Source of the DNA: Mobula hypostoma
Lineage: Eukaryota
Assembly (NCBI RefSeq): GCF_963921235.1
Contig: NC_086097.1
Location: 21,268,001-21,332,000, forward strand
Length of the DNA: 64,000 nt
Direction of reading: 5' to 3'
The translations under genes were made by a program, and so were the position numbers. Positions 24,623 through 29,466 of the stretch are shown piece after piece. Numbering within the stretch: position 1 is the stretch's first letter; each line of letters starts with the position of its first letter. The notes under the pieces were generated by a model. That model did no database searches. It was not told where the DNA came from and saw nothing but the letters and a program-made list of their open reading frames with translations.

Positions 24623-25008
24623 TAAGTAATATTACCACAAATTAATTAATAAGTAATGAGTTACATTTGCATCATAAGTTTAAAAAGTAAACAGTATAAC
24701 ACCATTGGCTCTTCATACGTGATGAGACCTGGGTGGTGGCAGGCAGTTGAGTAGTCTCATGGCCTGTTGAGGGAAGCTGTTTCCCATCCTAACAATGCTT
24801 GTCCTAATGCTACGTACCTCCTGCCCGATGGGAGGGGATCAAAGAGACTGTTGGCTGGAAGGAAGGGATCATTGACAATGTACACAGTGCTCTTTATAAA
24901 TATCTGATGGGTGGAAGAGAGACCCCGATGATCGCCAGCAGTGCTCACAATCCTTTTTTGGGACTTGTGGTCAGAGACGTTGCAATTTCCATTCCAGACA
25001 GTGATGCA

Positions 25009-26461
25009 ACACATACAAAATGCTGGAGGAACTCAGCAGGCCAGGCAGCATGTAGGAAAAGAGTACAGTCAACAATTCGGGCCGAAACCCTTCGGCAGGA
25101 CTGGAGAGAAAAAGCTGAGGAGTAGATTTAAAAGGTGGGGAGAGGAGAGAGAAACGCAAGGTGATAGGTGAAATCTGAATCTGGAGGGGATGAAGTGAAG
25201 AGCTGTGAAGTTGATTGGTAAAGGAGACAGAAGGCCATGGAAGAAAGAAAAGGGGGGAGGAGCACCAGAGGGAGGTGATGGATGGGCAAGAAGATAAAGT
25301 GAGAGGGGGAAAAGGGGATGGGAAATGATGAAGTGGGGGAGGAGGAATTACCGGAAGCTTGAGAAATCGATGTTCTTGCCATCAGGTTGGAGGCTACCCA
25401 AATGGAAAATGAAGTGTTGCTCCTCCAACCTAAGTGTGGCCTCATCATGACAGTGGAGGAGGCTATAGACAGACATATCAGAATGAGAACTGGAATTAAA
25501 ATGGGTGGCCACTGGGAGAGCCCGCTTTTTCAGGCGGGCAGAGCGTAGATGCTCAGCGAAGCGGTCTCCTAATCTACGTCGGGTCTCACCGATATACAGG
25601 ATGCTACACCGGGAGCACCAGATTCAGTATATAACCCCAACAAATTCACAGGTGAAGTGTCGCCTCACCTGGAAGGACTGTTTAGGGCCTTGAATGGTAG
25701 TGAGGGAGGAGGTGTAGGGGCAAGAGTAAGTGCCAAGAGGGAGATAAGTGGGGAGGGACGAATGGACAAGGGAGTTGCATAGGGAGCGATCCCTGCGGAA
25801 AGCAGTAAGTTGGGGAGGGGGAAGGGAAGGATGTGTTTGGTGGTAGGATCCCGTTGGAGATGGCGGAAATTCCAGAGAATTATGTGCTGGACGCGGACCC
25901 TGGTAGGGTTGTAGGTGAGGACAAGAAGAACCCTATCCCTGGTAGAGTGGTGGGAGGATGGGTTAAGAGCTGACATGCCTGAAATGAAAGAGATGCGTTT
26001 GAGGGCAGTGTTGATGGTGGAGGAAGGGAAGCCTCTTTCTTTGAAAAAGGAGGACATCTCCTTCATTCTAGAATGAAAGCAGATCTGAGAGCAGATGGGG
26101 TGGAGGCAGAGGAATTGAGAGAAGAGGATGGCGTTTTTATAATTAACAAGGTGGGAAGAAGTATAGTTCAGGTAGCTGCGGGAGTCTGTGGATCAGTGGA
26201 TAAGCTGTCTCTGGAGATAGAGACAGTGAGATTGAGAAAGAGGAGGGAAGTGTTGGAAATGGACCAGGTAAATTTGATGGCATGGTGGAAGTTGGAGGCA
26301 AAGTGGATGAAGTTGATGAGTTCAGCATGGGTGCAGGAAGCAGCACCAATGCAGTTGTCGATGTAGCATAGGAAAAGTGCGGGATGGTCACCAGTGTAGG
26401 CTTGGAACATAGACTATTCCACATAACAAACAAACAGGCAGACCTAGCTGGGAGCCATGCC
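25009..26461 (-). mobile_element. Penelope-like element fragment (RT C-terminus + GIY-YIG + terminal repeat)
   Basis: FFKERGFPSS, LRYIDNC-like and GIY-YIG remnants homologous to 9745-11875; possible GATGCA TSD. Confidence 0.85.
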
Positions 26462-26843
26462 AGATGCACCTGGTCAGGACACTCTCAATGGTGCTCCTGT
26501 AAAAGTTGATGGGGATGTTTCAGGAGTTGGAGATGCTGCTGTGCTTTCTTGGTCAAAGAGGTGGTGTTGAGGTACTAGGTGAGATCATCCATCATGTGTA
26601 CACCCAGAAACTTGATGCTCCTAACACACTCCATTGAGTAGCTGTTTACATGCTGTGAGGAGTGGTCAGCCCTGCACCTTCCTAAAGTCCACAATTATCT
26701 CTTTCATCTCGTCCACACTGAGACTCAAGTTGTTATGCTCACACCATTCTACCAGCTGCCCTACCTCCTCTCTGTACACCATCTCATCGTCGTCATTGAT
26801 GAGGCCAACCACTGTTTTGTCATCAGTGAATCTGATGATCCAG

Positions 26844-27451
26844 TGTACGGGGTCTTTCTTTTGTTACATTTAAAATGGAAAGTTTGTTATGTTAATCTGG
26901 GGAATGCGGCTTTGTTGTGCTTTAACGCTGAAGAGAGTTTGCGCTAACAGTTTGTTTTACTTTAAAATGAGATAACAGGGTTCTATTAGCCAATGGGTGG
27001 TTATGTATCGTTTTGTTTTCGGATACCATGCTGTATGATATGACTGTGGACTGAGTTTTGGCGGGGAGTCGGAGGAGAGACGAGGAAGACCGCGGACGTG
27101 TGGAGAGGCTCCGGTCGATCACTCAGGGTGGTCCCGAGCCGTGAGTCGACGGAATTCGGGTGGTCATCTGAAGTCGAATTGAGCTCCAACGTAGCGCGCA
27201 AAGAACTTGGACTTTGATAAGTGTTGGCGCCTTTTTTTTTCATTACTTTCCTCTCTGTATCAAATGTATATTAATGTCATAGAATTAGTAATATCTATAA
27301 AGTGTATTTGTTAAAATTTACTGGGTGTGCTGGCTGATGATTGATGTTTGTGATTGATTCGGGTGGCAACCGACCCTGTGGGGAGTGTTGAGGCGGGTGC
27401 TGGGCTGGATTTCCCCGAGACATACACGAGCCAATATAACTGAACGTTACA
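26844..27451 (+). mobile_element. Single LTR (Gypsy- or ERV-type, tRNA-Pro primed)
   Basis: TGT(A)ACG...CGTTACA terminal inverted ends, a CCAAT box at ~26990 and a CpG-rich interior. After a 2-nt spacer (AG) comes the canonical tRNA-Pro PBS TGGGGGCTCGTCCGGGAT. Confidence 0.85.
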
Positions 27452-27453
27452 AG

Positions 27454-27504
27454 TGGGGGCTCGTCCGGGATTTGAACCGGGGACCTCTCGCACCCAAAGC
27501 GAGA
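27454..27504 (-). pseudogene. 3' two-thirds of mature tRNA-Pro(UGG) including CCA (extended PBS; not a functional tRNA gene)
   Basis: The minus strand reads TCTCGCTTTGGGTGCGAGAGGTCCCCGGTTCAAATCCCGGACGAGCCCCCA: anticodon arm, T arm, acceptor strand and CCA, with one mismatch to the recalled vertebrate tRNA-Pro. Confidence 0.9.
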
Positions 27505-29466
27505 CCTGAATCTAGCTGTGCAGTTTTGTGTCAGCAGTGCGAACAGCAGGGGGCTGAGCACACAGCCTTGGGGAGCACCAGTGCTTAGCGCAATGGAGCT
27601 AGAGATGTTGCCGCCAACACGGACTGACTGTGGTCTTTCTGTCAAGAAGTCCAAGATCCAGTTTGAAGATAGAGCTGTTGAAACCCAACGAGGACAATTT
27701 ACCCACCAACTTTGGAGGGATGATTGTATTAAACATTGAGCTGAAGTCGATAAACAGCATCCTAGTGTGTGAGGCAGTATTTTTCAGGTTGGATAGGATG
27801 GATTGAAGTTTCCGAGGCTGTGGCATCATAATATTTGCATACATCTTACAGCCTTTCAAAGAGTGTGTCCTTCATGTCGTGAACGCTTCCTGCTGATAAG
27901 TCTTATTTGCACTTCATTAATTCCGACTTGACTACCCTTCACCTGTTCTGGGTTCATGAAGATGTTAGACAATGTTCAGAGAACATAAAACAATGCAGGC
28001 CCTTCAGCCCGCAATGTTATGTTGATCTTTTAATCCTCCCTAAGATCAATCTGACATTTTCCTGCCAAACAGCCCTCCTTGTTTCTTTCATCTCTCTGTC
28101 TATCTTAAATGTCCCTTATGTACCTGCCTCTATCACCACTCATGACAGCATGTTCCATGCATCTACCATTCTCTGTGTGGTTAAAAAAAAACAACTTGCC
28201 TCTGACATCCTCCCTGTACTTTTTCTCCACTTCCCTTAAATGATGCCCTCTTGTATGAGCCATTTCTGCCCTGGGGGGAAAAAATCTCTGGCTGTCCACT
28301 TGATCGGTGCCTCTTATCATCTTGTACACCTCTGTCAAGACACTCTTCACCCTCCTTTGCTCCAAATCAGAATCTGATTTCTTATCACTGGCTTGTCATA
28401 AAATTTGCTGCTTTGTACAATACACAAAATATACATTAAAATGTACTATAAATTACGAAGAGAGAAGCCCTAATTTGCTCAACCTATGCTCATAAGACAT
28501 GCTTTCTAATTCAGACAGCATCCAGGCAAGTCTGCTCTGCACCCTCTCTGAAGCTTCCACGTCCTTCCCAAAAGTAAGGATGCTGCAGTATTTTAGTGTT
28601 CCTACACACCATGCCATTCAAGCAGTTGGATGTAGTTTGCTGTCTGAAAGGGAAATGATTCCTTCTGAACCTCCAACTGCAGGTTGGTTGGTTAAAGCCA
28701 CATGAGAAACTCTTGGCTGAGATTCTGGAAGAGATGAAGAAGGATAAGTAAAATAAACAGTCTGCCTTCAGTACACAGCTTCTGTTACTTTCTGATCCGG
28801 TTGCTCACATTTTTGTCATCAGAGTCAGTTGGGAGAATGTTTCTATAGCAATGGACAGAAATAGCGCTGTTTCTGTAATTACTGGTTTTATCAATTTTCC
28901 CTACTTCAGATGTGATCATCCATCACATTTCCCCGGTTGGAGGCGTTAGTGGTGTTACAATTAGCCCAGCCAGCGCCCTGCTCTTGAATTGTGCTGGGGT
29001 GTCAGAGGTGCTGCCTTTGAATGAGATGTTAAATTGCTGTCTCAGCCAGACAGAAAAGATCTCCTTGGCTTTAATCAAAGGAGAGCAGGAGAATTCTTCT
29101 CCTTGTCCAACGTCAGCGGAAGTTGGTCACTTGTTGCTTTTCCTGGGGCTTTGCTTGTGAAAACAGGAACTGTTTCCAGACCCCTTCACTGGGTCCTCCT
29201 GATGACGGGCAAAGTGCAATTGAATATTTTTTCCATATGTAAACCATTGAATAGCCCCCAGAAATGCTTCCGAGTCCAAATGGGGAAGTTGCAGCAAGGT
29301 AAGGGTTACGATAATGCTCAGGCAAGGATAGTTTAGATATCGTGTGCAGTCTGTCCAGGCAAGTGAAGCCTTTGAAGAGCATAGCTTCCCTTTGCATAGC
29401 AGGGGACTGGAGCCATTTGGCACACCAAGACAAGATAAGGATTCAAAAGAAGCATTCTAGAGTGAC

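Follow-up and report, generated by a model that had tools for sequence, protein, structure and literature searches.

A long terminal repeat joined to a 51-nt copy of tRNA-Pro in the genome of Mobula hypostoma: a probable fossil of over-extended plus-strand strong-stop DNA

In retroelements that carry long terminal repeats (LTRs), plus-strand strong-stop DNA normally ends after 18 nt of the primer tRNA have been copied, since the methylated adenosine at position 58 (m1A58) blocks the reverse transcriptase (RT). The tRNA for proline carries a further methylation, m1G37, at position 37. Here we describe an insert in Mobula hypostoma (NCBI RefSeq assembly GCF_963921235.1, contig NC_086097.1, positions 21,268,001 to 21,332,000 of the forward strand; this whole stretch of 64 kb is referred to as the window) in which a complete LTR is followed by 51 nt complementary to tRNA-Pro(UGG). 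The insert interrupts an old copy of a long interspersed nuclear element (LINE). In our opinion it is probably a fossil of a dead-end plus-strand strong-stop DNA that had been over-extended past tRNA positions 58 and 37, and that was end-joined into a chromosomal break without the help of integrase.

A close counterpart is found in HIV-1, which is primed by tRNA-Lys3. tRNA-Pro is reported to bear m1A58 in human cells (PMC11251516). If the stop at m1A58 is lacking, plus-strand synthesis enters the tRNA, the product contains non-genomic sequence and the transfer fails (PMC8599865, PMC11251516), i.e. the over-extended product leads neither to a completed transfer nor to integration (PMC8599865, PMC11251516, PMC13191261). 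Minor HIV-1 products are described with ends at positions 55, 54 and 37 or, on unmodified tRNA, at the tRNA's 5' end, only the short ones being usable, and a modified purine at position 37 is reported to stop RT on tRNA-Lys3 (PMC13191261). Like our insert, the over-extended HIV-1 strong-stop consists of U3-R-U5 and a copy of the primer tRNA that begins with the CCA, and in both cases the tail past position 58 is left unpaired by the genome of the element (PMC13191261, PMC8599865). In these sources the HIV-1 products are known from in vitro and cell culture experiments, whereas the window insert is found in a germline chromosome, belongs to a Ty3/gypsy-like element, contains tRNA-Pro and ends at position 26 or 25, which is not among the stops described.

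Other systems, too, bring tRNA sequence next to an LTR. A primer over-extension sequence has been reported in lentiviruses and spumaviruses (Muthuswami et al. 2002, cited in PMC13191261), and in the leaders of the LTR families studied here the match to the tRNA likewise does not end at 18 nt but reaches as far as position 53. This feature is inherited and tolerates a short over-extension, whereas the window copy exceeds it by 27 nt, which have no counterpart in the genome of its family. Retro-transcribed tRNA-Gly has been described beside deleted HIV proviruses (PMC12220202), so that there too a reverse-transcribed tRNA adjoins LTR sequence in a chromosome; that case differs from ours in that the tRNA is not the primer, that it is found at the 3' end of the provirus and that self-priming was proposed. 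No description of a germline insertion composed of an LTR and an over-extended tRNA copy was found in the open literature.

Capture of Ty1 cDNA at double-strand breaks is known in yeast. In mouse zygotes, and in two natural mouse insertions, retroelement cDNA is reported to have been captured at breaks with 1-7 nt of microhomology and no duplication (PMC4516963). The window insert resembles the captures in zygotes in that there is no duplication, the loss of host bases is small, the microhomology is 1-3 nt and integrase is not needed. The mouse captures are internal fragments that are truncated at both ends and contain no LTR, whereas the window insert has the form of a whole intermediate with an intact 5' end (PMC4516963). 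A recombinational solo LTR, like the window copy, has one LTR and no internal genes. The solo LTRs of the same family (L025, L028, L030) have a perfect 4-bp duplication and no primer-binding sequence (PBS), whereas the window copy has AG, the PBS, 33 nt of further tRNA sequence and a loss of 5 nt. Junctions of retroviral 2-LTR circles may carry inserted PBS or tRNA sequence. They share with the window the read-through into the tRNA at the U5 end, but in the window there is no second LTR.

The insert and its flanks consist of the following parts (positions are those of the window):

26463..26843, minus strand: fragment of the host LINE reverse transcriptase, left flank; the minus strand reads ...WIIRFTDDKTVVGLINDDDE...
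26842..26843, plus strand: AG of ambiguous origin, either host sequence or the dinucleotide that precedes the LTR beside the polypurine tract
26844..27451, plus strand: complete LTR (U3-R-U5) of a Ty3/gypsy-like family, TG...CA, 608 nt, delimited by colinear copies
27452..27453, plus strand: AG that separates the LTR from the primer-binding sequence; normal 5' copies have the same spacer
27454..27471, plus strand: complement of the last 18 nt of mature tRNA-Pro, with the CCA
27472..27504, plus strand: 33-nt over-extension corresponding to tRNA-Pro(UGG) positions 58 down to 26, not present in the genome of the family
27479, plus strand: sole mismatch to the tRNA, G for C, opposite tRNA position 51
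27505, no strand assigned: C that differs both from the base expected next from the tRNA (A) and from every LINE paralogue (A in 19/24, G in 5/24, C in 0/24)
27506..27829, minus strand: fragment of the host LINE resumes, right flank (RVT_1, 23.2 bits)

Over its full length the window LTR is colinear with the 29 other copies that were fetched (604-610 nt), shares their terminal bases and is 96.2-98.3% identical to them. The left end of the insert is the first base of U3, i.e. the same TG as in the other 29 copies. The AG in front of it can be read in two ways: it is present at this position in 16 of the 24 LINE paralogues, and ...GGGGGGA(G/C)AG stands immediately before the TG in five out of five 3' LTRs. 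At the other end the terminal CA of the LTR is followed by AG, as it is in 19 leader-bearing 5'-type copies and also in the copies L011 and L027. The right end of the insert is the tRNA-derived ...GCGAGA, which contains no terminal CA. When the whole 64 kb was searched by BLAST, the LTR was present as one copy only and no second LTR was found; a 3 kb query of family-internal sequence gave no internal element sequence in the window.

The segment 27454-27504 (51 nt) was compared with the reverse complement of the genome's own tRNA-Pro(UGG) gene to which CCA was added, and 50 out of 51 positions are identical. The match takes in the CCA, the 3' strand of the acceptor stem, the T arm and the variable loop as well as the complete anticodon arm, and ends at position 26; the 33-nt over-extension spans the T loop, the T stem, the variable loop and the whole anticodon arm. 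The tRNA-Pro(UGG) gene is 72 nt long according to ARAGORN, one D-loop position short of the standard numbering, and tRNA positions are counted here from the 3' end; base 26 of the gene is a U. The genome has tRNA-Pro genes with the anticodons UGG, AGG and CGG, and the anticodon of the insert is UGG. At 27479 all ten tRNA-Pro genes found have C where the insert has G; as the LTR itself differs from the other copies by 1.7-3.8%, a single change in 51 nt fits. Judged by this level of identity, the agreement at 50 of 51 positions cannot be a matter of chance. The tRNA genes do not encode the CCA, so that a mature tRNA, or else the PBS of the element itself, is the source of the first bases of the tRNA match. 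ARAGORN reported no tRNA at the insert when run on the window, nor did Rfam between 26000 and 28500 at E values up to 10, which is expected for a 5'-truncated, antisense tRNA copy.

An initial sequence-only reading of this stretch had proposed the LTR at 26844-27451, the 2-nt spacer and a 51-nt tRNA-Pro(UGG) complement running from the CCA through the T arm and the whole anticodon arm, and had pointed to the absence of internal sequence and of a second LTR. The coordinates hold, the 50/51 match is confirmed by the genome's own tRNA genes, and BLAST of the window finds neither of the missing parts. An insert that starts with U3 and continues with one full LTR, the spacer and a copy of the primer tRNA from the CCA onwards has the structure that defines plus-strand strong-stop DNA.

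We then have to consider how the normal copies of the family are built. The LTR search, like the other genome-wide searches, covered the whole 3.48 Gb assembly and gave 2087 candidates, of which 40, including the window copy, were scored; the 29 fetched copies consist of 19 5' LTRs with AG, PBS and a shared leader, five 3' LTRs that follow a polypurine tract, the three solo LTRs, L011 and L027. In the 19 leader-bearing copies the shared leader (...GGGATTTGGACTTTTCGGGAAAG...) leaves the tRNA sequence at base 22, and the tRNA match stops after 21-24 nt in 19 out of 19, whereupon the leader begins. The alignment extends past query position 634 in none of the 39 other scored copies. The LTR end followed by AG and the 18-nt PBS is found at 51 places in the genome, and only the window place carries the extension (the extension status was assigned by overlap with the 24 places that carry 25 nt of the CCA-bearing tRNA-Pro complement). 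A 46-nt pattern across the junction, searched with at most 3 mismatches, has a single occurrence in the 3.48 Gb.

The type of the element was judged from 1.5 kb at each end, using L029 for the 5' side and L015 for the 3' side. In L029, the 1.5 kb that follow the 5' LTR encode a PNMA domain (102 bits) and a zf-CCHC domain; in L015, an rve domain (integrase core, 54 bits) is encoded in the 1.5 kb that lead up to the 3' LTR. The rve domain reaches almost to the polypurine tract, which leaves no room for env. These domains point to a Ty3/gypsy-like LTR retrotransposon, with a gag of the PNMA type, rather than to a retrovirus. The 5' and 3' LTRs of four full elements are 96.5-98.4% identical within the pair.

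The leaders and primer-binding sequences show some variability of their own. After the 18-nt PBS, family leaders continue to match the tRNA to about position 53. The comparison included L002-L029, 113 junctions of the ...GACAAAAT type and 100 of the 677 junctions of a set dominated by an unrelated, abundant family of the TAAG type, the leaders being covered up to 9 nt beyond the PBS for the former type and up to 13 nt for the latter set. Examples are TTGGAC, (A/C/T/G)TGAAC with a variable base opposite position 58, and TTTTGAAC. The leader match to the tRNA is 23/24 in family A and 24, with a mismatch opposite position 58, in the ...GACAAAAT family. In 13 of the 19 leader-bearing 5' copies (L005-L010, L013, L014, L020-L024) the PBS is altered by an extra AC after GGGGGCT, and most of these have one more base changed in the downstream CCGGG. 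As the alteration is common to 13 copies, a subfamily imperfectly complementary to tRNA-Pro has multiplied. Two copies are irregular: L011 has a deletion from inside the PBS to the downstream TGGTGTGAAG, and L027 consists of a full LTR and AGT followed by unrelated sequence, with no matching 4 bp in its flanks.

The two flanks of the insert are adjoining parts of one decayed LINE reverse-transcriptase fragment on the minus strand. The RVT_1 fragments score 16.5-28.9 bits, i.e. each is under the curated cut-off, yet they are colinear along the profile; the paralogue L063 scores 28.9 bits, slightly below the cut-off. By these profile matches the host LINE can be described as having an RVT_1-type reverse transcriptase only. 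The left flank is about 80% identical to more than 3000 genomic candidates (40 scored). Twenty-nine left-flank loci were fetched, of which 24 also hold the right flank; no open reading frame (ORF) of at least 250 amino acids was found in the 29.

The paralogues allow the empty site to be reconstructed. The bases that match 26843 and 27505 are separated by exactly 5 nt in 24 out of 24 paralogues, from which it follows that about 5 host bases were lost and that there is no target-site duplication. The five intervening nucleotides are TTTGA in 16 of the 24 and one-base variants of it in the other 8. When 5 nt are restored, the LINE frame reads ...ARFRSNWIIRFTDD..., matching ...SSSNQIIKFTDD... of L063, and the ...SN.II(K/R)F(T/A)DD motif of that paralogue is recovered. 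In the LTR family, a perfect 4-bp duplication is present in 7 out of 7 checkable copies (TTCT, ATAG, TTAT and TAAA in four full elements; TGTA, CCAA and TACA in the three solo LTRs). The tetramers that flank the window copy are CCAG and CCTG, which match at 3 of 4 positions and do not form a perfect duplication. A 4-bp duplication CCAG/CCTG was considered as the main interpretation and rejected, because all 24 paralogues have 5 extra bases there, the return of which also restores the frame.

At the left junction the first T of the LTR is identical to the first lost host base, so a microhomology of T or AGT is possible. At the right junction the last tRNA-derived bases, GA, are also the next bases of the host, and several BLAST alignments of the paralogues begin at 27503. 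A microhomology of 1-3 nt is thus possible at each junction by sequence, and the unambiguous loss of host bases may be as small as 2 nt.

A possible course of events can be outlined as follows. The plus strand would have been primed at the polypurine tract, and U3-R-U5 would have been copied from the minus strand of a Ty3/gypsy-like element; a left end at the U3 boundary is what is expected from a plus strand primed in this way. Synthesis would then have entered the still attached primer tRNA-Pro(UGG), passed the usual 18-nt stop at position 58, and proceeded along the T arm, beyond position 37 and across the anticodon stem, to position 26 or 25. The copy of the tRNA was presumably made by the element's own RT, and the primer tRNA would have been under-modified, or its modifications bypassed. 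An over-long 3' tail that has no partner in the genome of the element would make the second strand transfer fail. The orphan molecule (LTR, AG and 51 nt), which we suppose was single-stranded when captured, would have met a chromosomal break within the old LINE copy, where host end joining would have sealed it in with 1-3 nt of microhomology on each side and a loss of 2-5 host bases, a microhomology-guided repair pathway being the one we infer. With no staggered cut by integrase, no 4-bp duplication would be formed.

The sequence-only reading had arrived at the same interpretation. It had claimed a missing target-site duplication and a few lost host bases, and the 5-nt loss seen against 24 of 24 paralogues, compared with the 4-bp duplication of the family, agrees with both. 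Neither of the comparisons it proposed gave a refutation: tabulated over the family copies, the 51-nt tRNA match is not routine (1 of 51 junctions is extended), and sizing of the deletion on the paralogue-based empty site again gave a 5-nt loss with no 4-bp duplication. The interpretation as over-extended strong-stop DNA is thus supported, with three amendments, namely that the element is Ty3/gypsy-like, that the host LINE, there called Rex, is described here by its RVT_1-type reverse transcriptase only, and that the copy is not unique in kind within this genome.

Several points weigh against this interpretation. The left end is precisely the TG of integrase-processed ends, which leaves room for integrase at that side. 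At positions 58 and 37 the copy is free of misincorporation, something unusual if the tRNA was fully modified. As for the mismatch at position 51, we know of no modification there, nor do we know of a stop for tRNA-Pro that coincides with the end at 26/25; the end point may accordingly reflect trimming at the joining step and not a stop of RT. The microhomologies of 1-3 nt are weak by themselves and could be due to chance. The empty site was reconstructed from paralogues of about 80% identity, not from an orthologue or an allele. Finally, it is conceivable that this LINE copy had previously lost 9 nt in frame and that CCAG/CCTG is an imperfect 4-bp duplication, and deletion of one tetramer also leaves the LINE frame open.

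Some of these points would be accommodated if integrase had joined an aberrant linear cDNA at its U3 end, either as a half-site reaction completed by host repair or as a concerted reaction with CCAG/CCTG as an imperfect duplication. The exact position of the left junction at the TG of integrated copies, the agreement of the tetramers at 3 of 4 positions and the frame that stays open after one of them is removed are in line with this. The tetramers are, however, 5 nt apart in all 24 paralogues and the required 9-nt deletion is seen in none of them; moreover, the right end ...GCGAGA offers no terminal CA and the normal copies have perfect duplications in 7 out of 7 cases. We therefore regard participation of integrase as unlikely.

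The over-extended strong-stop interpretation is also favoured by the other places where tRNA-Pro sequence follows an LTR-like end in this genome. The pattern used for them was 25 nt of tRNA-Pro complement with the CCA, by which shorter or older copies, and those of other tRNAs, are missed. It was found at 24 places, around each of which 215 nt were fetched: three are intron-bearing tRNA-like genes with no CCA, five carry 24-25 nt and are probably normal leaders of their families, and 16 carry 27 nt or more. In these 16 loci, which include the window, 27-69 nt of antisense tRNA-Pro follow an LTR-like end (...ACAAAAT, ...CTACATT(G) or ...ACAATTG). The lengths of the tRNA copies are 27, 33, 38, 39 (five loci), 40, 41, 42 (two loci with identical flanks), 50, 51, 63 and 69 nt. 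It is conspicuous that 8 of the 16 end at 38-41 nt, i.e. around tRNA position 37. The loci other than the window copy are:

15 further loci with a tRNA-Pro copy after an LTR-like end: L073, L075-L078, L080-L082, L085-L088, L090, L093, L094

Loci with the same LTR end differ from each other in the sequences beyond the tRNA copy. For four loci with a common LTR end, the sequence that follows was not matched in a small reference element of that type. When the reference L097 was compared with five loci of the ...GACAAAAT type, it was 71-76% identical to two of them; a third matches only the last 61 nt of the LTR and the other two did not align. L085 has 63 nt of tRNA; its right flank, examined from about 52 nt beyond the tRNA copy onwards, occurs only once in the genome, and this locus may thus be a second capture into host DNA. 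In L076, L081 and L087 the tRNA copy (40, 39 and 33 nt, respectively) is followed by the reverse complement of the adjacent upstream U5 end, so by their sequence these look like snap-back or strand-switch products. In L082 (50 nt) a direct repeat of the 180 nt preceding the PBS, 96% identical, is found about 100 nt further on; this tandem form may be of the 2-LTR circle junction kind.

On this basis one may tentatively suggest, as something we hold to be possible but somewhat doubtful, that dead-end plus strands of several LTR families have left a population of fossils in this genome (no fewer than 16 loci for tRNA-Pro alone), the 3' ends of which would record the stops of RT on the primer tRNA in the germline, half of them at 38-41 nt. 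Since the window copy goes past positions 58 and 37 without error, the tRNA that primed it would then have lacked both methylations.

The same loci bear on a second alternative, in which an LTR duplex was captured with the tRNA still bound covalently to the minus strand, and a host repair polymerase, when filling in, copied the 33 extra bases from the RNA. The sequence contains nothing that separates one polymerase from the other, and the error-free copying of positions 58 and 37 makes an enzyme or a context outside the particle conceivable. The 15 other loci, with ends clustered at 38-41 nt and with the template-switch and snap-back forms L076, L081 and L087, are on the contrary typical of RT; in addition, the minus strand normally extends beyond U3, which makes the clean U3 left end harder to explain. 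We give this alternative only a small chance.

It is far less probable that a full-length element had integrated and was later cut down by deletion to its 5' LTR and PBS, or that the copy is a solo LTR of the ordinary kind. The family does often occur as isolated LTRs (L025, L028, L030) and an internal deletion is known (L011), but the 33 nt past the PBS are tRNA and not element sequence, a deletion would have to stop a few bases from the far end of the element and also erase the duplication, and the solo LTRs of the family retain the 4-bp duplication and carry no PBS. Recombination of the PBS, or its gene conversion, with a tRNA-Pro gene, a retro-copy of a tRNA or a SINE (short interspersed nuclear element) of tRNA origin already at the site is hardly credible, for although the 21-24 nt common to PBS and tRNA might support a crossover, tRNA-like sequence is present at the site in none of the 24 LINE paralogues, a gene-derived copy would continue to the tRNA's 5' end and into its flank, and a 49-nt stretch of the tRNA sequence, searched with at most 3 mismatches, is found at 11 genomic places, i.e. 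in the window and in ten tRNA genes, which means that there is no such SINE family.

If over-extended strong-stop DNA is what was captured, the window copy combines known processes in a new form. A germline insertion recognisable as a whole over-extended intermediate would show that over-extension and capture both occur in nature, and in one and the same event. If the more doubtful suggestion of a whole population of such fossils holds as well, they would provide a natural, datable read-out of the modification state of primer tRNAs, as well as of integrase-independent cDNA capture, in a vertebrate germline. Genomes can be mined for them by a recipe, namely an LTR end, a complement of the primer tRNA longer than 18 nt and no duplication, which gives 15 more candidates in this genome, and the distribution of their end points could be compared with the known stops of RT at tRNA modifications. 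For annotation it means that, in dating and in estimates of recombination rates, copies of this kind are to be kept apart from solo LTRs and from truncated proviruses.

A locus with a PBS of normal length was also considered. L096 (G000:C45:96086330-96087330) has a related LTR, AG and exactly 18 nt of PBS, followed by unrelated sequence. It was rejected as a capture of normal-length strong-stop DNA, since its right flank is a repeat that recurs, inverted, downstream of other PBS sites in the family, at a distance of 1.5-5 kb; judged from this arrangement it is probably a rearranged element, formed by aberrant plus-strand transfer or by internal inversion.

The three tRNA-Pro-like genes found with the 25-nt pattern (L091, L092, L095) are split after position 38 by about 15 nt and have neither CCA nor LTR; the inserted sequence is intron-like and is located at the canonical place. 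The host LINE copy in the window has a second interruption at 25009-26462, where the alignments of the paralogues skip from 25008 to 26463. It contains a minus-strand ORF at 25348-25623 with a GIY-YIG domain (23.8 bits, cut-off 22.6), a domain which we take to be as in Penelope-like elements.

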